IMG/VR virus record: IMGVR_UViG_648028025_000005 | Length of the DNA stretch: 64,000 bases | Source: a virus | Taxonomy: Duplodnaviria > Heunggongvirae > Uroviricota > Caudoviricetes | Reading direction: 5' to 3' (one strand) | In this document: piece after piece, positions 7,198-63,721 of the stretch | Layout of the letters: each line of letters starts with the position of its first letter | Position numbering within the stretch: the stretch's first letter is position 1 | The notes under the pieces: model-generated | Database searches by the model: none | What the model was told of the DNA's origin: nothing | What the model saw: only the letters and a program-made list of their open reading frames with translations | Translations under genes and position numbers: made by a program

Positions 7198-8088
7198 TCA
7201 GGCTGCCAGATCATCGTTTCCGATGGAAGCATAATAAGCTTTTTCTGCTTCTGCCGGAGGAGTATGGCCCAGCCTTCCCAGCAATCGTCGATTGTTATAC
7301 CAGTCCACCCACGTTAGTGTGGCCAGTTCCACTTCTGCACGGTTTTTCCAGCTCTTACGGTGTATTACCTCCGCTTTGTAAAGACCATTGATGCTCTCAG
7401 CCATCGCGTTGTCATACGAGTCGCCTGTACTCCCTGTTGATGCCAGTAATCCGGCTTCTTTTAGTCGCTCCGTATAGGCCAGTGACACATACTGAGAGCC
7501 TTTATCGCTGTGATGGATGGTGCCAGACGGACGACGGGCCCACAACGCCTGCTCCAGCGCATCCAGCACGAATGTCGTTTCCATAGACGATGAGACCCGC
7601 CACCCCACGATGTATCCGGCAAACACATCAATGATAAACGCCACATAGACGAAGCCCTGCCATGTGCTGACGTAAGTAAAATCAGCCACCCACAGCTGGT
7701 CAGGTCGTTCTGCCACGAACTGACGGTTTACGCGGTCGCCTGCGGCAACGGCTTTCCGGCTGATGGTCGTACGGACCTTTTTACCCCGGAGAACACCGGC
7801 AAGTCCCATAACCGCCATGAGACGTGCCACTGTACATCTGGCCACCCTGATTCCTTCCCGTAACAACTGACGCCAGACTTTACGCACACCGTACACCTGA
7901 TGATTTTCATCGTATACGCGCTGTATCTCTCTCTTCAGCCAGTCGTCGTGCTGCGCACGGGCACTGCGTTTATCCGGATGATGTCGCTGTTGCTGACAAT
8001 GGTAATACGTTGACGGGGCAATATGCAGTTCGCTGCATACCGGTCCGACCCCGTACTGCTCACGCAGCTTATCCAGCAGTGGCATCAT
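7198..8088 (-). CDS. IS629 transposase OrfB (DDE catalytic domain)
   Basis: 296 aa, recognised IS3-family OrfB sequence ([16 protein letters not shown]...). Confidence 0.9.
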
Positions 8089-8411
8089 TTTTTCCAGAGG
8101 CGGTCGAACTCCGCCTTCGCAAAATAAGCGGAAGCCTGGCGAAGGATATCGTTACTGCGGCGCAGTTCACGATTTTCACGTTCCAGCTCTTTCAGACGCT
8201 GACGTTCAGCGCTGGTGAGCCCACCATCACCGCCCCCGGTATCCCGCTCATGCTGGCGAACCCAGACACGCAGGGTCTCCGGCGTACAGCCAATCTTTGG
8301 GGCAATGGAACAAATTGCCGCCCACTGTGAGTCATATTCATCCTGACTTTCCAGAACCATACGAATCGCCCGCTGACGGACTTCGGGGGAAAAACGAGTA
8401 TTTTTAGTCAT
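8085..8411 (-). CDS. IS629 transposase OrfA
   Basis: 108 aa HTH protein [19 protein letters not shown]...; overlaps orfB start at A-rich run (GGAAAAAATGATG). Confidence 0.9.
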
Positions 8412-9499
8412 CCTGTTTACCTCTTTCTCAGGGAGTTTAGTCTCCAGGATTTCCGGGGCGGTTCATATACTTTTAGTGTGCTTTGATTCTGATATATCAT
8501 CTTTAATTATCTTGATGATTCTTTCATTCTGCCATAGAAGTGATGGTGCAGATATATAATAATAGTTAAAGCATGAATTATTTTTTAAGCAATCAAGCAC
8601 AAAAATAGCACCTAGCGAGTGCCCCCATATACCGATTCTGGAACTGTTCGGAGCAATAGTACTAACCCATGGCATGATCTGAGTTAGTAATAATTCTCGG
8701 AAAGACTGGCTTCCTCCACCAGTAAAGTAGATCCATGCTGGTTTAGAGTTATCAACAATAGCATTTTCACCATCAGGAGTATAATCGTAAGCACGGCGAT
8801 GAATGCTAAGGTTATTCCAAGATTCATAACCAAGTGTAACTAACACTGGTGGATTGGGTAGTGCATCAATAACAGGCAGAATATCAGAAATGTAATTGTT
8901 GGCACTATTCCCATCAAGTATATAAAGAGTTGCATTATTTTTTTTAATGTTTTTTGGAGTAAAAATACATATTTTATATTTGGTGTCATGGTTAATTGAG
9001 TTAAATATGCGTGTTTGACAATGAATGTCCATATGTTTAGTCATGCGTTCTCCCCATGAGCATTAAAGGATGCTTAAGATATGCTATGTCACTGATAAAA
9101 AATTTGTTGTGTGTGTTTAGTTATTTTATCTACCTCCATTATGATTTAAGACTGATATATGTTATCAGCAAAGGTACATCGTTATTATTTTACCTGTCAA
9201 TACATTTGATATTGATTATCGTTTACATCGCTTGCTTAGGAAATTGAAGGCAGGTAACTATCATGTCAATGAACTAACCCACAGTCTAACGTACTTCTTT
9301 CCCCAATCACCAACAACCAAATTCCTGTTATCACCACTGGGATTTTGGCGCAACTTCATGGTGCAGAGGTAAATAGCATCAAGCAAAATCTCTTTTTCCG
9401 TTGTTGTCCTTATGGGACGTCTGTCTTTCTGACCGATTTCATATTGGCGAGGTAATGGGAAGTTAAGTAGAATAGCTGCGGGTGCTTGAGGCTATCTGC

Positions 9500-9648
9500 C
9501 TCGGGCATGAACACCAACGGCAGATAGAGAAAAGCCCCAGTTAACATTACGCGTCCTGCAAGACGCTTAACATTAATCTGAGGCTCAATCTATGAACGGC
9601 AAATCTAGGTTAGCCTCTTACGTGCCGAAAGGCAAGGAGAAGCAGGCT
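9500..9648. promoter_or_regulatory. hok leader region; expected location of mok start and antisense sok RNA
   Basis: by analogy with hok/sok loci only; in-frame upstream extension of hok ORF begins at 9592; no sok promoter mapped. Confidence 0.3.
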
Positions 9649-9804
9649 ATGAAGCAGCAAAAGGCGATGTTAATCGCCCTGATCGTCATCTGTTTAACCG
9701 TCATAGTGACGGCACTGGTAACGAGGAAAGACCTCTGCGAGGTACGAATCCGAACCGGCCAGACGGAGGTCGCTGTCTTCACAGCTTACGAACCTGAGGA
9801 GTAA
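9649..9804 (+). CDS. hok: Hok/Gef-family type I toxin (HokD/RelF-like, 51 aa)
   Basis: MKQQKAMLIALIVICLTVIVTALVTRKDLCEVRIRTGQTEVAVFTAYEPEE; single transmembrane helix; followed by terminator. Confidence 0.85.
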   Translation: MKQQKAMLIALIVICLTVIVTALVTRKDLCEVRIRTGQTEVAVFTAYEPEE

Positions 9805-13637: not shown

Positions 13638-14351
13638 ATGGTTGTTGTCTGTTCAGTTATCATGGTTTGCTCCCCAATTAATATTTTTCTTGAAAAGGAT
13701 ACGTTGTCACTTAAGCCCGGCTCAGTCGTTCTGGCCACCAAATGCATCAGGGCGCTTTTCCTTATGCATTATGGCAAAGTTAAAATTTTCGATATAAACC
13801 ATTCCATAGTAAGTCAATATCTGGAAATTCAGCATAAGCTGACAAGAACTCATCTGACTGACGTTCCGCTTTATCTGTCACTGGAACCCAACAACCCTGC
13901 GTTGGCTGAGGCTTTAATTACCAGCCAGAGATTTTCCGGAGATACCACGGATATGTTTCTTATGATGGCATGCCTGTCGCTGTTTGAATCAGATGAACGG
14001 ATATTATTATTTTTAAGTGGATGTTTATCCAGTATAAGTGCCAAAGTCAGGGCGATAATTCAGACAGATATATCAGCAAGCTGGACGCTTGGTGCGATTG
14101 CGTTACGCCTGCATATGAGTGAGAGTTTGTTAAAGATAAAACTGAAAAATGAAGGGCACATGTTCAGTCGCTTGTTGCTGGAAGAGCGGATGCGTGTTGC
14201 TGTGAATATGTTATGTTCCCGGCATGGATATGGACAGGCTATAGCAGAAAAATGCGGTTATTCAAGCAGGTCCTACTTTATTTCTGTATTTCACCGCTAT
14301 TATGGCTTCCCGCCAGACAGATATGTATCCAGGCAAGGGCTTGATTATTGA
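13638..14351 (+). CDS. AraC-family transcriptional regulator (prophage-borne, YdeO/GadX-like)
   Basis: 237 aa; C-terminal AraC HTH (AIAEKCGYSSRSYFISVFHRYYGFPP); paralog in B at 61650-62363. Confidence 0.8.
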   Translation: MVVVCSVIMVCSPINIFLEKDTLSLKPGSVVLATKCIRALFLMHYGKVKIFDINHSIVSQYLEIQHKLTRTHLTDVPLYLSLEPNNPALAEALITSQRFSGDTTDMFLMMACLSLFESDERILLFLSGCLSSISAKVRAIIQTDISASWTLGAIALRLHMSESLLKIKLKNEGHMFSRLLLEERMRVAVNMLCSRHGYGQAIAEKCGYSSRSYFISVFHRYYGFPPDRYVSRQGLDY

Positions 14352-14669: not shown

Positions 14670-14734
14670 AAATGTCTCACAATTCAGGCGGTTGACTGTT
14701 GTCTGGTTTGCGGGGAGTTTGTTAAAAGAAACTG

Positions 14735-14842
14735 GCATGGTGAATCCCCCTGTGCGGAGGGGCAATCAGCGAGTAGGTATATGGGATAATCGCGGATTCA
14801 GGTGCTGGTACTGAATTCACCGGGAGGCACCCGGCACCATGC
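14735..14842. promoter_or_regulatory. conserved ~105-bp non-coding element upstream of nanS-p (copy A)
   Basis: ~90% identical copy at 63442-63549; contains hairpin CCCCCTGTGCGGAGGGG; A copy followed by hairpins at ~14868-14920. Confidence 0.35.
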
Positions 14843-15118
14843 AATGGCACATAGCGCCACTCTCCAGCCCCTCTCCGGAGGGGCTTTCTTATGGACAAAA
14901 AAAGCCCGCGCAGGGAGACGCGGGCGGCAAGGAATAAACAACAAAACGTGAAGTAATATTTCAGCTGGCGAATAATATCCGACAGTAATCACTCTGCGCA
15001 ATAGCGCGGCCTTTTTCGTATTGCGGGCTGTTGTCTCTCTTCTGCCATTGTCCTGTAACTTCCGGACTTCAGCCCGCTCCTCATTTTACTCACAATATTA
15101 TCCCGGCCGGGAGGATTC

Positions 15119-16969: not shown

Positions 16970-17416
16970 TAAAAAAAGAGCCAGCGACTGACCTGAAAGA
17001 AGACGCTGGCTAAAAGGCCTTATATGTTTGTAGAGACTTATTTTTCACAGACAGCAATGATGCCTGTCAATATATTATCAATATGCGGATTGTTTCAGTT
17101 ACAGATGCTTTATTAAGGAAAAAAACAGCCAGCACTGACTTTCGGTGGAGAGGTGCTGGCTCAGAAGGATAGTTGGATTTCACATGATACTTATGCCTGG
17201 CGGTATATTTTCTGACAGACAGTGACGGGTGTTGTCAAGATATTGTGTCATTTATAACCTGAATCAGGGGAGGCCGGAATGTTATCTGGCATTTTTAGCA
17301 GAGCCTGAATGCCATAATCACGGCTCCCGGAGTTGGCCGTCAGTGGGTGACACTGGCGGCTTTTTTGTTTTTCTTTACTTTCATTTTCTGTCGGCGGTGA
17401 CGGAGACATACATCAG

Positions 17417-17623
17417 ATGGAAAAAATCACAACAGGTGTGTCATACACCACGTCAGCGGTGGGGACGGGATACTGGTTACTGCAGCTGCTGGACAAAGTC
17501 TCTCCGTCCCAGTGGGTGGCAATAGGTGTGCTGGGAAGTCTGCTGTTTGGCCTGCTGACGTATCTGACTAACCTGTATTTCAAAATCAGAGAGGACCGTC
17601 GTAAGGTGGCGCGGGGAGAGTAG
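17417..17623 (+). CDS. S: class II holin (phage 21 S / pinholin type)
   Basis: 68 aa, two TM helices, C-terminal [13 protein letters not shown]; closely resembles S21 by recall. Confidence 0.8.
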
Positions 17624-17878
17624 TCGATGAATAAACAATACGAACTGGTTGTAAAATGAATATTTCTAACTGAAAAAACGTTCCATGAGGTAAGAAAAGG
17701 TCACAGGCAATCAATAACAGGACGTGATGAAAGACCCTTGCATTTGTGCGCTTTCTCTTTAGATAGCAGCAGATACTGAAAATCTGAGTTGTCGGGGAGT
17801 CAGGGATACAGCTGTGCAAGAGTTGGTCATTGTGATTCCATTGAAATCCTGTATGCCATGAAGGGCAGGATTTTATGG

Positions 17879-18193
17879 CTACCTGAGCTTTGGTGATAGT
17901 AAGTTGAAAATTCGCATTTTTTGCTGACATGCGTAACGAGAATCCCATAAACAGGGAGGACTTAATTCTTCATTAACCCATGCGTTGATATTATGTTTCA
18001 GCCGTTGAAGCATCAGCGGTGTTAATGTTGTGGTAATAATATCCAGCGTTTTATGTGAGATCTTACCGTAAGGGTCTGCAAGAATGCTGCTTGTTGCTTC
18101 GTTATTATCTGCCATCAGAAGAAGTAACTCTGATTTAACGTTTTCTGTCATTAGTTGTAAAAATCTTCTGCGCAAACTTTCTTTACTGTTCAT
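17879..18193 (-). CDS. hypothetical protein on opposite strand between holin and endolysin
   Basis: 104-aa ORF in the 687-bp S-R gap; size/position reminiscent of Qin ydfR but strand and identity unverified. Confidence 0.4.
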   Translation of the reverse strand: MNSKESLRRRFLQLMTENVKSELLLLMADNNEATSSILADPYGKISHKTLDIITTTLTPLMLQRLKHNINAWVNEELSPPCLWDSRYACQQKMRIFNLLSPKLR

Positions 18194-18310
18194 TTATATG
18201 GCTTCATTTGTTGTAATCTGCTGCGTCTCAAGGGATATGTTTATGAGAGCGACCATGAGTGTTTGATTATATACCTAACATATCAAGGGATTAGAAATCG
18301 ATAAATCCCC

Positions 18311-18844
18311 ATGAACGAAAAAATAAAATACGGCCTGTCGGCTGCCGTTCTGGCGCTGATTGGTGCAGGTGCTTCTGCGCCTGAAATCCTCGACCAGTTT
18401 CTGGATGAAAAGGAAGGTAACCACACCACGGCATACCGTGATGGTGCGGGGATCTGGACCATCTGCCGTGGTGCCATTCTGGTGGATGGTAAGCCTGTTA
18501 TTCCTGGCATGAAGCTGTCAAAGGAAAAATGCGACCGGGTTAATGCCATCGAACGTGACAAGGCGCTGGCATGGGTGGAGAAAAACATCCGGGTGCCGCT
18601 GACCGAACCCCAGAAAGCGGGGATCGCGTCATTCTGTCCGTACAACATTGGCCCCGGTAAGTGCTTCCCGTCGACGTTTTATAAACGAATTAATGCAGGC
18701 GATCGAAAAGGTGCCTGTGAGGCGATTCGCTGGTGGATTAAGGACGGTGGTAGAGACTGCCGTATCCGTTCAAATAATTGCTACGGTCAGGTCTCACGGC
18801 GTGACCAGGAGAGCGCGCTGGCGTGCTGGGACATCGACAGATAG
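18311..18844 (+). CDS. R: SAR endolysin (phage lysozyme R)
   Basis: 177 aa; N-terminal signal-anchor-release segment YGLSAAVLALIGAGASAP; lysozyme-like remainder; paired with pinholin. Confidence 0.9.
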   Translation: MNEKIKYGLSAAVLALIGAGASAPEILDQFLDEKEGNHTTAYRDGAGIWTICRGAILVDGKPVIPGMKLSKEKCDRVNAIERDKALAWVEKNIRVPLTEPQKAGIASFCPYNIGPGKCFPSTFYKRINAGDRKGACEAIRWWIKDGGRDCRIRSNNCYGQVSRRDQESALACWDIDR

Positions 18845-19179
18845 CAGAATATTTTCCTGAAAAATGACGTTGGCCAACGCGGGGGGATAACACGAAATCC
18901 TGAAAACTGGTAAAACCTAAGTGAATAAAAGTAAAAACCCCGTTTGTTGGCAGCAAGCGGGGTTTTGTGTTTTCTGACCTTGAGTAAGGCAAGGGAGAAA
19001 TTATGGGTAGGGAGGTACTTTCCCTGTGAGGAAGTATAAAAGATTCTTTCTGAGGTTGTCCATTATGAAAGGCATTGAAGTGGAGACGCCAGCCAGTCTG
19101 GATTTAACAAGAGCGGCAGCTTTTGCCATTCGTATTGTGGCCATTGCTGTTCTGGTCTGGGCAATCCGTTGGTGGTGAT

Positions 19180-19647
19180 ATGAACCGTGTTCTGTGCGTG
19201 GTTATCATTGTCCTGCTGGTGGCCTGTGGTGCGCTTAGTCTGGGGCTGAATCATTACCGTGATCACGCCATCATCTACAAAGAGCAGCGCGATAAAAAAG
19301 CCAGTGAGCTGGAGCTGGCGAACGCGACAATTACTGATATGCAGATACGCCAGCGTGATGTCGCTGCACTTGATGCCAGATACTCGAGGGAATTAGCCGA
19401 TGCGAGAGCTGAAAATGAAACTCTGCGTGCTGATGTTGCCGCTGGTCGTAAGCGCCTGCGGATCAACGCCACCTGCTCCGGTACCGTGCGTGAAGCCACC
19501 GGCACCTCCGGCGTGGATAATGCAACCGGCCCCCGACTGGCAGACACCGCTGAACGGGATTATTTCATCCTCAGAGAACGGCTGATGGCAATGCAGAAGC
19601 AACTGGAAGGAGCACAGGAATATATCCGTACCCAGTGTATACCGTGA
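19180..19647 (+). CDS. Rz: i-spanin Rz
   Basis: ATG 19180 (MNRVLCVVIIVLLVACG) N-terminal TM anchor; coiled-coil body; contains embedded Rz1 in +1 frame. Confidence 0.8.
   Translation: MNRVLCVVIIVLLVACGALSLGLNHYRDHAIIYKEQRDKKASELELANATITDMQIRQRDVAALDARYSRELADARAENETLRADVAAGRKRLRINATCSGTVREATGTSGVDNATGPRLADTAERDYFILRERLMAMQKQLEGAQEYIRTQCIP
19415..19585 (+). CDS. Rz1: o-spanin Rz1 lipoprotein, embedded in Rz
   Basis: lipoprotein signal MKLCVLMLPLVVSAC followed by Pro-rich region; entirely within Rz in a different frame. Confidence 0.7.
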   Translation: MKLCVLMLPLVVSACGSTPPAPVPCVKPPAPPAWIMQPAPDWQTPLNGIISSSENG

Positions 19648-20111
19648 TGTTTTGTTATGAAGGTGTTACTGGTAACGTTAAGGTAATTTAACAAAGAGTC
19701 AGTTCCGGACTTTATAGTGTGCTCAGTTCATGGCCAAAAACGATTTCTGTGATAAATATTTTGAATATTATTTACAGGTAAATGGAGTGGGGCACATGGA
19801 TAGAAATATTACAATAGAGAATGAAGTATATGCCCGTATTGTATGGGCAGAGAAGGCAAAAACACGGTAATTCCGTGTGTTGCCATGATACCTGATTGGC
19901 AGAATAGTTGTTTGGTTTTGAGTATATAGTCAGCGTTTTTTGTTCAGTAATTGCTCCCTCAAAAAATAATAAAACAAGGTGATTATTTTTGTTTATTATT
20001 TAGTTTTTTTGTGTGTTGTTTTATTGTTTTTGCGTGGTTTGTTTTTTATTGTTATTTCATTAAGGGAAGGTAAATTCAGGATGGCAGTCTGTAGATAATC
20101 GGAGGTCACTT

Positions 20112-20426
20112 ATGCTACATGATCACGTGGCAGAATGTCTGGAGAAAAAAGGACTGTACCGGAGAGCAGCTGAACGATGGGCAAAAGTGATGGTACAGCT
20201 AAGTGATGACCAGAAAAGAAAAGTGGCGGCACAGAAACGAGCAGAGTGTTTGCGTAAGGCGCGCCGGACTCCGGTTTCACCGGTGAACCTGACCGAAATA
20301 AAACAAGCGGTCAACAGACTACATTCTGAGTTGGGAATGGGATTTGAAGAGCGGCGGGTATTCCGACGATATAAAGGGACAGGAGAACAGAATACGTCCG
20401 GAAACGCGCGGTCAAAAAAATGCTAA
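20112..20426 (+). CDS. pch: PerC-family transcriptional regulator (Pch-like, prophage-borne LEE activator homolog)
   Basis: 104 aa; conserved core KGLYRRAAERWAKVM...KRAECLRKAR; AT-rich T-tract promoter region upstream (19960-20100). Confidence 0.7.
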   Translation: MLHDHVAECLEKKGLYRRAAERWAKVMVQLSDDQKRKVAAQKRAECLRKARRTPVSPVNLTEIKQAVNRLHSELGMGFEERRVFRRYKGTGEQNTSGNARSKKC

Positions 20427-20507
20427 AAAATATCTGAGAGAGTTATTGCCTGTTACCATAAGAAAAAGCGACTTTAGTGGTCGCTTTTTGTGTCATATAT
20501 AAGTCGT

Positions 20508-20732
20508 TTAAGTAAACCTGTCTGAACAGGTGCTCTGGTCGTGTTTGTCTTTGTTGGGTACAAATTGAGAATATTTTTCATTAATTAATCTTCTTCTGCA
20601 GGCTTCAATAACCCACGCTGAAAAATTACCTGAACCTTTCAGGTCAAGAGCGATGTTAATTTGTTCAATTATCTGGTTTGGAAATCGGATGTTGCGGGTT
20701 GTTGTTCTGCGGGTTCTGTTCTTTGATGACAT
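20508..20732 (-). CDS. ribbon-helix-helix DNA-binding protein (putative)
   Basis: 74 aa; beta-strand NIRFP then helices QIIEQINIAL and NFSAWVIEACRRRL. Confidence 0.45.
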   Translation of the reverse strand: MSSKNRTRRTTTRNIRFPNQIIEQINIALDLKGSGNFSAWVIEACRRRLINEKYSQFVPNKDKHDQSTCSDRFT

Positions 20733-20859
20733 AATGTTGCCCCGTATTCAGTGTTGCTGATTTGTATTATCTGAAGTTGCTTTTACGCTAATTTGATGCA
20801 GATCAATTAATACGATACCTGCGTAATAATTGATTATTTCTCGTGGTTTGATGGCGTAC

Positions 20860-21128
20860 ACACATGTCGTGATAAACCTCATGTAGATGATAATTATTAT
20901 CATTTTCGTGGGTCCTTTCCGGCGATCCGACAGGTTACGGGGCGGCGACCTCGCGGGTTTTCGCTATTTATGAAAATTTTCCGGTTTAAGGCGTTTCCGT
21001 TCTTCTTCGCCGTAACCTAATGTTTTTATTTAAAACACCCCCTGAAAAGAAAGGAAACGACAGGTGCTGAAAACGGGCTTTTTGGCCTCTGTCGTTTCCT
21101 TTCTCTGTTTTTGTCCGTGGAATGAACA
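20860..21128 (+). other. cos: lambda-type cos site (cosQ-cosN-cosB); cosN 12-nt cohesive-end sequence at 20940-20951
   Basis: CGACAGGTTACG|GGGCGGCGACCTCGCGGGTTTTCGCTATTTATGAAAATTTTCCGG matches the joined lambda right/left ends as recalled. Confidence 0.85.
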
Positions 21129-21648
21129 ATGGAAGTCAACAAAAAGCAGCTGGCTGACATTTTCGGTGCGAGTATCCGTACCATTCAGAACTGGCAGGAA
21201 CAGGGAATGCCCGTTCTGCGAGGCGGTGGCAAGGGTAATGAGGTGCTTTATGACTCTGCCGCCGTCATAAAATGGTATGCCGAAAGGGATGCTGAAATTG
21301 AGAACGAAAAGCTGCGCCGGGAAGTTGAAGAACTGCGGCAGGCCAGCGAGACAGATCTCCAGCCAGGGACTATTGAGTACGAACGCCATCGACTTACGCG
21401 TGCGCAGGCCGACGCACAGGAGCTGAAAAATGCCAGAGACTCCGCTGAAGTGGTGGAAACCGCATTCTGTACTTTCGTGCTGTCGCGGATCGCAGGTGAA
21501 ATTGCCAGTATTCTCGACGGGATCCCCCTGTCGGTGCAGCGGCGTTTTCCGGAACTGGAAAACCGACATGTTGATTTCCTGAAACGGGATATCATCAAAG
21601 CCATGAACAAAGCAGCCGCGCTGGATGAACTGATACCGGGGTTGCTGA

Positions 21649-21674
<26 letters not shown>
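21129..21674 (+). CDS. nu1: terminase small subunit Nu1
   Basis: 181 aa, essentially lambda Nu1 (MEVNKKQLADIFGASIRTIQNWQEQGMPV...). Confidence 0.95.
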
Positions 21675-25355
<3,681 letters not shown>

Positions 25356-61649: not shown

Positions 61650-62363
61650 ATGGCTGTTGTCTGTTCAGTTATCATGGTTTGCTCCCCAATTAATATTTTT
61701 CTTGAAAAGGATACGTTGTCACTTAAGCCAGGCTCAGTCGTTCTGGCCACCAAATGCATCAGGGAGCTTTTCCTTATGCATTATGGCAAAGTTAAAATTG
61801 TCGATATAAGCGAATCCGTCGTAAGTCAATATCTGGAAAGTCAGCATAAGCTGACGAGGACTCGTCTGACTGACATTCCGCTTTACCTGTTGCTGGAACC
61901 CAACAATCCTGCGTTGGCTGCGGCTTTAATTACCAGCCAGGGATTTTCCGGAGAGGCCACGGATATGTTTCTTATGATGGCCTGCCTGTCTCTGTTTGAA
62001 ACAGATGAACGGATGTCATTGTTTTTAAGTGGATGTTTATCCAGCATAAGTGCCAAAGTCAGGGCGATAATTCAGACAGATATATCAGCAAGCTGGACGC
62101 TTGGTGCGATTGCTCTACAGTTGCATATGAGTGAGAGTTTGTTAAAGACAAAACTGAAAAATGAAGGGGGCATGTTCAGTCGCTTGTTGCTGGAAGAGCG
62201 GATGCGTGTTGCTGTAAATATGTTATGTTCCCGGCATGGATATGGACAGGCTATAGCAGAAAAATGCGGTTATTCAAGCAGGTCCTACTTTATTTCTGTA
62301 TTTCACCGCTATTATGGCTTCCCGCCAGACAGATATGTATCCAGGCAAGGGCTTGATTATTGA
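61650..62363 (+). CDS. AraC-family transcriptional regulator (prophage-borne)
   Basis: 237 aa; paralog of 13638-14351. Confidence 0.8.
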   Translation: MAVVCSVIMVCSPINIFLEKDTLSLKPGSVVLATKCIRELFLMHYGKVKIVDISESVVSQYLESQHKLTRTRLTDIPLYLLLEPNNPALAAALITSQGFSGEATDMFLMMACLSLFETDERMSLFLSGCLSSISAKVRAIIQTDISASWTLGAIALQLHMSESLLKTKLKNEGGMFSRLLLEERMRVAVNMLCSRHGYGQAIAEKCGYSSRSYFISVFHRYYGFPPDRYVSRQGLDY

Positions 62364-63408: not shown

Positions 63409-63441
63409 TTTTTTTGTTTGCTGTTTATTAAAAACACTTCT

Positions 63442-63549
63442 GCATGGTGAATCCCCCTGTGCGGAGGGGCGATCAGCAACCAGGTATATGGGATAATCGC
63501 GGATTCAGGTGCTGATACTGAATTCACCGGGAGGCACCCGGCACCATGC
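63442..63549. promoter_or_regulatory. conserved ~105-bp non-coding element upstream of nanS-p (copy B)
   Basis: ~90% identical to 14735-14842. Confidence 0.35.
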
Positions 63550-63721
63550 TTTGCCACAAAAGTGTTGTTTCTGTTTTTCTCAAACTATCATCGTTATCCC
63601 TTTATTTCCGGCTGCGCATGGCGTGGCCTTTTTTTACGACCAGCCACTGGCAGATGGCCATCCTGTAATTTGATTCCGGTTCCGGCTTTTTAACTCTGTT
63701 CCTGTACACGGGAGAAATTCG

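Follow-up and report, generated by a model that had tools for sequence, protein, structure and literature searches.

The DNA analyzed here is a 64,000-nt window (IMG/VR record IMGVR_UViG_648028025_000005, Caudoviricetes) that contains two tandem prophages, and we concentrated on the interval of the first one that separates its lysis genes from its cohesive end site (cos). All positions given below are those of the window, and profile E-values come from Pfam, NCBIfam, PHROG or Rfam, as named. We find that this interval is the pchA locus of an enterohaemorrhagic Escherichia coli (EHEC) prophage, in which pchA, coding for an activator of the PerC family, is carried by a cargo cassette (a moron) lying beside ylcI, a small gene of the phage backbone, and that its mechanism of action would be the one described for the identical protein of serotype O157. 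We hold this reading with a probability of about 0.9.

As had been proposed from a sequence-only reading of this DNA, the 104-aa open reading frame (ORF) of the interval codes for a PerC-family protein. It matches Pfam PerC (PF06069) with an E-value of 3.8e-44 and 149.3 bits (cut-off 22.6), residues 1-89 aligning with positions 1-89 of the 90 in the profile, and all of its 104 residues are identical to those of PchA (ECs_1091) from prophage Sp4 of O157:H7 Sakai. The product is named 'PerC family transcriptional regulator' by RefSeq/PGAP (WP_001303878.1), and the exact sequence appears in UniRef as 'PchABC family transcriptional regulator'. A sequence search of the PDB gave no usable match for PchA or for YlcI. 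The gene is preceded by a Shine-Dalgarno sequence (GGAGG, 20101-20105) located 6 nt ahead of the ATG, and the ~1.06 kb going from the 3' end of the spanin gene Rz to the point where an IS629 insertion interrupts the Sakai locus show a mean column identity of 98% with Sakai. Many E. coli O26 chromosomes match a 1551-bp query taken from the interval with 100% identity; the window is a piece of an O26 EHEC chromosome and its prophage is the O26 counterpart of Sp4. In the O26 strain E2865 the prophage adjoins tusE-yccA, which is the integration site of Sp4 in Sakai, and E2865 and the window differ downstream of the tail genes. Since the complete identity of the protein, the tusE-yccA site, the AraC-type neighbour and a terminal tccP2 are all common with Sp4, the pch gene of the window is the positional orthologue of Sakai pchA. 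It belongs to the group-1 Pch: a 104-aa protein near-identical to the experimentally characterised PchA/B/C, whose gene follows the lysis genes in a lambdoid prophage.

The 853 bp bounded by the Rz stop codon and a point shortly after the terminator (19648-20500) behave as one unit, which comprises a 46-aa ORF, an AT- and T-rich leader, pchA and a two-way terminator (Table 1). Of 5426 complete E. coli genomes, 672 contain this cassette, the median copy number being 3 per genome and the count in strain E2865 also 3; each match spans at least 80% of the 853-bp query, and identity is at least 99% in 649 records. Among 50,697 phage records it was found only in two short fragments, both from an O157 strain. 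It carries a hairpin terminator, its GC content is 0.28-0.39 versus ~0.5 in the flanks, and it is absent from lambda, DLP12 and the Shiga toxin (Stx) phage BP-4795. These properties, taken from sequence comparison, identify the cassette as a probable moron flanked on one side by Rz/Rz1, with which the lysis genes end, and on the other by ylcI, the first backbone gene on the packaging side. The suggestion that pch sits between the lysis cassette and cos, in the place where lambda carries bor, was correct: Rz/Rz1 end at 19647, ahead of cosN, and lambda and DLP12 have bor-p78/ybcV-p79/ybcW there. Because the order in DLP12 is rzpD, borD, ybcV, ybcW, ylcI, nohD, the pch cassette replaces bor-ybcV-ybcW, with ylcI as its fixed right-hand neighbour.

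The components of the cassette differ in their conservation. The 46-aa ORF at its left end, which the sequence-only reading had not mentioned, always accompanies the pch cassette; it is not annotated by PGAP, occurs in phage records only in one O157-derived fragment, and keeps its full reading frame in the cassette of strain A25, where a single residue differs. The long T-rich region that had been noticed upstream of pch is borne out by its composition, with a GC content of 0.28 and an AT skew of -0.32 over 19900-20099, versus a GC content of 0.50-0.59 in the coding DNA of Rz and pch on either side; a single weak site resembling a promoter is located at 19880-19908. Most likely this region would be an H-NS-silenced promoter and leader receiving the published signals described below. 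The hairpin that follows pchA, with 10-nt arms that are 100% complementary, has a predicted RNA folding energy of -14.7 kcal/mol on the plus strand and -12.1 kcal/mol on the minus strand (z=-4.1 and -4.3), and the cassettes of O121 and A25 have it without any change. We consider it a putative intrinsic terminator that would work in two ways, for pchA and for ylcI, which converge on it. The A25 cassette is the most divergent copy found, with 91.7% overall identity, and its differences amount to 21% in the leader and 6% in pch, as compared to 0-3% in the 46-aa ORF, the hairpin and ylcI. Since the divergence is concentrated in pch and its leader, with the hairpin and ylcI conserved, pch plus its leader form a sub-module with a history of its own.

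The 74-aa ORF that converges on pchA across an 81-bp gap had been described as a ribbon-helix-helix gene inserted together with it. The ORF is real: it matches Pfam DUF3950 (PF13132) with an E-value of 1.3e-17 and 63.8 bits (cut-off 25) and NCBIfam YlcI_YnfO_N (NF041551) with an E-value of 1.6e-8 and 34.5 bits (cut-off 30), and PGAP calls it 'YlcI/YnfO family protein' in O26 genomes. The idea that it was inserted does not hold, since lambda has a homologue at 48109-48303, the homology to lambda picks up inside ylcI, at ~20598, and ylcI homologues are encoded in 151 phage records. The same point is marked by the megablast matches to phages, which begin at query position 999 (window 20598). The lambda homologue is a 64-aa DUF3950 ORF on the minus strand, just left of cos (L003 3110-3304); it is annotated neither in NC_001416 nor in J02459, and its product is identical to K-12 YlcI. 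The segment homologous to lambda covers the 5' part of ylcI and the DNA just left of cosN. Among YlcI homologues the first 49 residues are near-invariant and the C-terminal tails are unrelated; in the window, the N-terminal ribbon-helix-helix-like domain comprises approximately aa 12-49 (nt 20586-20699), and the variable tail, aa 50-74, is encoded on the cassette-side DNA. In the Stx phages BP-4795 and JLK-2012, ylcI precedes a module formed by HNH, TerS and TerL genes (TerS and TerL, small and large terminase) and lies opposite to the strand of late transcription. It also precedes HNH-TerS-TerL in the pch-bearing prophages of O121 and A25, where the homology shared with the window ends precisely at the start codon of ylcI. 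Since synonymous codon changes outnumber non-synonymous ones (12:4 with respect to lambda and 18:4 with respect to JLK-2012), ylcI is a real gene under purifying selection. The comparisons thus indicate that ylcI is conserved lambdoid backbone and not cargo, always the last gene before the packaging module and opposite to late transcription, which corrects the idea of a ribbon-helix-helix gene carried as cargo. The convergent transcript overlaps listed for K-12 include ybcW-ylcI (PMC12288877), which implies that ylcI is transcribed there, and the YlcI/YnfO family is still listed as uncharacterised (PMC11551758). The homologue of lambda itself, unannotated and uncharacterised, is a small gap in a model phage.

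A co-inserted unit formed by pch and the ribbon-helix-helix gene, in which YlcI would repress or insulate pchA or the two genes would interfere by convergent transcription, must nevertheless be considered. In prophages of the HNH and TerS type pch is accompanied by the 74-aa tail variant of YlcI, with homology ending at the ylcI start codon, the DNA encoding this tail is found to the cassette side of the junction with lambda, both genes converge on one common hairpin, and the K-12 transcript overlap mentioned above offers a parallel. However, ylcI occurs without pch in lambda, DLP12, the Stx phages and the 151 phage records; the A25 divergence, confined to pch and its leader, speaks for separate histories; and in Sakai Sp4 IS629 truncates ylcI and removes its conserved ribbon-helix-helix domain, yet pchA of that strain is the experimentally active reference (PMC4764244). 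Since the truncated locus keeps an active pchA, YlcI is not needed for PchA function, and we judge a joint unit to be quite unlikely. Even more improbable, to the point that we hardly credit it, is that this pch copy is inactive or is a different PerC homologue without effect on the LEE (locus of enterocyte effacement). Such homologues exist, as PchD and PchE are reported to have little effect on the LEE (PMC6265319), but the protein of the window is 100% identical to PchA, its promoter and leader are near-identical to those of Sakai pchA, and its ribosome-binding site and terminator are intact.

The preferred reading, a pchA locus that works as in O157, relies for its mechanism on published work. 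In Sakai, the group-1 perC homologues pchA, pchB and pchC are carried by prophages Sp4, Sp11 and Sp14, and they are conserved among EHEC of serotypes O26, O111 and O103 (PMC2323221). EspA and adherence require the three genes, as does ler if it is to be fully expressed (PMC6265319, PMC4456613). Pch binds AT-rich DNA, activates the LEE1 promoter only when it is silenced by H-NS/StpA/Hha, and lowers H-NS occupancy at LEE1 (PMC4764244). Transcription of pchA in O157 is reported to be regulated (PMC4456613), with LrhA, Lrp/butyrate and NtrC acting upstream of it (PMC4456613, PMC13012123). Two further reports describe a block of pch translation, in which intramolecular pairing hides the Shine-Dalgarno sequence, that is lifted at low oxygen by the prophage small RNA (sRNA) DicF (PMC7769764, PMC7873438). 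By analogy, LrhA, Lrp/butyrate and NtrC would act through the T-rich leader of the window, and DicF would unblock translation of pchA by freeing its ribosome-binding site; PchA would then bind AT-rich DNA at the LEE1/ler promoter and displace the H-NS/StpA/Hha silencing complex, and the Ler so made would turn on the genes for LEE type III secretion and effectors. A DicF gene (48602-48653, minus strand; Rfam, 75 bits) is located in the neighbouring tandem prophage, and in the pchA-bearing prophage no DicF match reached the threshold.

Several of our results count against this picture. A sigma-70 scan returned 2 sites, with 3.4 expected from shuffled sequences, and no convincing promoter for pchA or ylcI. 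Folding of the pch leader (z=-0.06) and of the 5' part of the gene was no more stable than that of shuffles, and for this reason we do not claim a structured leader element. The predicted pairing of DicF with pch (20159-20216) is marginal, as 3% of shuffled DicF sequences score as well, and so is the prediction of the anti-Shine-Dalgarno candidates at 20265-20297. The LEE effect in O26 is itself transferred from the identical O157 protein, and we only infer that YlcI would be a small DNA-binding repressor made by the lysogen. The finding is genuine yet already known, because the gene is the well-studied pchA: both the gene and its placement beside effector genes and Psr-type AraC regulators on Sp4-type prophages have been published, as has the joint carriage of Pch, such regulators and effectors on prophages (PMC10877973). 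As an activator of the attaching-and-effacing island, pchA is one master switch of EHEC virulence, and its presence in this O26 prophage confirms existing knowledge and poses no new question.

Regarding YlcI, structure prediction gives an extended strand followed by two helices. When compared to solved structures, the matches of the predicted models were ribbon-helix-helix proteins in 5 of 5 cases for the first model and in 9 of 9 for the second, the neighbours of the latter being TacA1-3, PrpA/ParD, the CopG-family protein StnY, XACb0070, Reg576, ParB of pCXC100 and RelB. Both the strand-helix-helix topology and the similarity to solved ribbon-helix-helix proteins are thus found in a predicted monomer, in which the strand is unformed. 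At the sequence level, no significant sequence or profile match links YlcI to any ribbon-helix-helix family, and no such Pfam family matches YlcI itself up to E=10. One YlcI homologue reached E=0.092 against RHH_6, and the top PDB match of the YlcI family profile was a CopG ribbon-helix-helix protein (E=0.21). An hhalign comparison of the YlcI alignment with Arc/Mnt gave E=0.079 and a probability of 0.7% in a sensible register that places the β-strand and helix 1 of Arc on YlcI residues 12-33. Because the structural neighbours are consistent for a 45-residue domain modelled as a monomer, we accept a ribbon-helix-helix fold as likely, and YlcI would then most likely form a DNA-binding ribbon-helix-helix dimer.

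Distant relatives offer some hints about its function. A search of 1.84 billion representative proteins yielded 197 relatives of YlcI at E<=0.001. Two of them, independent of each other, are fusions in which DUF3950 is linked to the N-terminal ~50 residues of a small terminase of the Terminase_2 type (E=1.6e-11 and 1.7e-6). Both are encoded in small, integrase-bearing, satellite-like elements, which also have a TerS of their own, a primase of the D5 type and a capsid-like gene. One of these elements (L011) is found inside the terminase region of a lambdoid prophage, after a 93-codon terL fragment, and carries a second, unfused DUF3950 gene of 60 aa that is divergent from the long operon of the element. 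By analogy, these arrangements hint that the DUF3950 family may be linked to packaging or to repression, and they prove nothing for the gene of the window.

The TerS fusions, the unfused copy in the position of a repressor and the tail variant that travels with the pch cassette hint at a DNA-binding regulator, expressed in the lysogen and tied to the cos/terminase region, a role for YlcI that we regard as improbable but worth stating. A role in packaging itself, as a DNA-binding factor at or near cos/terminase and not as a transcriptional repressor, is a little harder to accept and we think it unlikely. It would account for the invariant position of ylcI directly ahead of the packaging module, be it Nu1/cos or HNH-TerS, for the conserved palindromes between ylcI and cosN, and for the two distant homologues that have DUF3950 fused to the N-terminal DNA-binding part of a Terminase_2 TerS. 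However, ylcI is opposite to the strand of late transcription and therefore outside the late packaging operon, the DNA upstream of it is unrelated between the two packaging types, TerS fusions were only 2 among the 30 aligned family members scanned, and the satellites have the unfused DUF3950 gene in a repressor-like, divergent position. The best structural neighbours of the YlcI model (TacA, ParD/PrpA and RelB) are ribbon-helix-helix antitoxins, and a weak HicB-like PHROG match (E=0.0099) points in the same direction, so that an orphan type II antitoxin was also considered. This possibility is very remote, and we rejected a type II antitoxin because there is no partner gene: no co-oriented ORF adjoins ylcI, which is followed by the hairpin and then by pchA on the other strand, no toxin family is found nearby, ylcI is likewise alone in lambda and DLP12, and PADLOC found no toxin-antitoxin or defence family, giving only a weak match of YlcI to a Type II methyltransferase (E=0.0026) that we treated as noise.

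Table 1. Features of the pchA-ylcI interval and its borders (window positions), with the related satellite loci
Feature	Position	Strand	Evidence or remark
Rz spanin gene	19123-19647	+	Pfam Phage_lysis E=1.2e-48; RefSeq start at window 19180
Rz1, embedded in Rz	19400-19585		Rz1 profile E=1.7e-21
46-aa ORF of unknown function, left end of cassette	19730-19870	+	PHROG 2157 E=2.7e-37, positions 1-46 of 46
pchA upstream region (promoter and leader, putative)	19871-20111	+	T-rich core ~19980-20065
pchA, group-1 PerC-homologue activator, 104 aa	20112-20426	+	Pfam PerC; identity to Sakai
Hairpin with flanking A-run and T-run, AAAAAGCGAC-7 nt-GTCGCTTTTT	20463-20489	both	Inverted repeat I8
YlcI/YnfO-family (DUF3950) gene, 74 aa	20508-20732	-	Pfam DUF3950; NCBIfam
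Homology to lambda right end, ~91% identity	20598-20939		Alignment to lambda 48160-48502
cosN cohesive end, GGGCGGCGACCT	20940-20951	+	Single exact match; 0 expected by chance
Nu1 small terminase	21129-21674	+	Pfam Phage_Nu1 E=3.9e-101
DUF3950-bearing satellite loci	L011 5590-6363 and 8040-9776; L010 4714-5103

The gene order across the region is class II holin, endolysin, Rz/Rz1, pch, ylcI, cos and Nu1. Rz closes the lysis cassette and marks the left edge of the moron slot, and Nu1 is its right border and the start of the packaging module, where the gpA terminase gene starts at 21649. The 12-mer GGGCGGCGACCT of cosN corresponds to the established left end of lambda, in agreement with the alignment to lambda. 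The stretch from the ylcI start to cosN holds two palindromes, one at 20802-20834 with arms ATCAATTAATACG/CGTAATAATTGAT and the other, imperfect (92% complementary) and self-overlapping, at 20886-20901 (GATGATAATTAT/ATAATTATTATC). The DNA surrounding both is ~91% identical to lambda, and they are candidate protein-binding sites. Between holin and endolysin, a 104-aa ORF on the minus strand (17879-18193) matches PHROG 1853, of unknown function (E=3.5e-47); RefSeq has a shorter hypothetical protein at this place. An Rfam scan of 17000-22000 gave nothing at E<=1 except chance microRNA and leader matches, and hence no described RNA family in the interval. Elsewhere in the window, a sok antitoxin RNA is found beside hokD (9480-9654, plus strand), and there is a full-length match to the ALIL pseudoknot, a frameshift element of the IS3 family, at 8014-8130 on the minus strand, where the E2865 annotation has no insertion sequence (IS).

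The sequence-only reading had also counted tccP and the AraC regulators, together with pch, as several host-virulence regulators of this prophage, which was right in part. Along with pchA, the first prophage carries one AraC-type (Psr-like) gene (13638-14351, plus strand), with 99% identity to Sakai ECs_1087, whose annotation is shorter by 42 residues; the second AraC-type (Psr-like) gene (61650-62363, plus strand) belongs to the neighbouring prophage. Each of them is followed by three tRNA genes (Ile-Arg-Arg in the E2865 annotation), and matches to the sRNA STnc100 come after them at 14706-14896 and 63413-63585. TccP2 is indeed on the first prophage, but it is an effector and not a regulator: an intact TccP2-like protein of 250 aa with four EspF proline-rich repeats is encoded at the right end of that prophage (42645-43397, minus strand). 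The integrase of the second prophage (~44201-45221) is apparently split into two ORFs.

The closest known system is Sakai Sp4, which shares with the window the prophage type, the integration site, a PchA that is 100% identical over 104 aa, and the neighbouring lysis cassette, AraC-type gene and tccP2. It differs in that the segment with holin, endolysin, Rz and pchA has the inverted orientation and lies between IS629 and ISEc8 (L002 22130-29826), in that ylcI is interrupted by IS629 at the equivalent of window position ~20598, with loss of the ribbon-helix-helix domain, and in that tccP2 is a pseudogene in Sakai, whereas both ylcI and tccP2 are intact in O26. The O26 locus is thus the undisturbed version, and its Sakai counterpart has been reshuffled by IS elements. 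PerC of the EAF plasmid (perABC) of enteropathogenic E. coli belongs to the same family (PF06069), and both proteins are reported activators of LEE1/ler (PMC4456613, PMC4764244). A plasmid gene of the PerC family, such as that on NC_010862.1, is ~47% identical over aa 2-88; perC is plasmid-borne within the per operon, whereas pch is a prophage moron, and Pch, unlike PerC, has a C-terminal extension of 15 aa past the Pfam domain. The slot between Rz and ylcI, before cos, is that of bor/borD in lambda and DLP12, which is likewise cargo serving the lysogen and not the phage; its content is unrelated, bor, ybcV and ybcW in one case and the 46-aa ORF plus pchA in the other, and bor is on the minus strand whereas pchA is on the plus strand.

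As for the backbone gene, the protein of the window belongs, with scores above the curated cut-offs, to the family of K-12 YlcI (DLP12) and YnfO (Qin). Of its first 49 residues 45 are identical to those of K-12 YlcI, and K-12 ylcI has the same position and strand relative to nohD/Nu1; the C-terminal tail of K-12 YlcI has 15 residues versus 25 in the window, and the two tails show no similarity. The Arc, Mnt and CopG repressors and the TacA, ParD and RelB antitoxins share the strand-helix-helix topology predicted for YlcI. They differ from the protein of the window in that the latter has neither a significant Pfam match to this fold nor a partner toxin or a known operator. A tail rich in Arg and Thr (RTRRTTTR) forms the N-terminus of the window YlcI, and the N-x-R motif of the Arc strand aligns with its residues N14-I15-R16.

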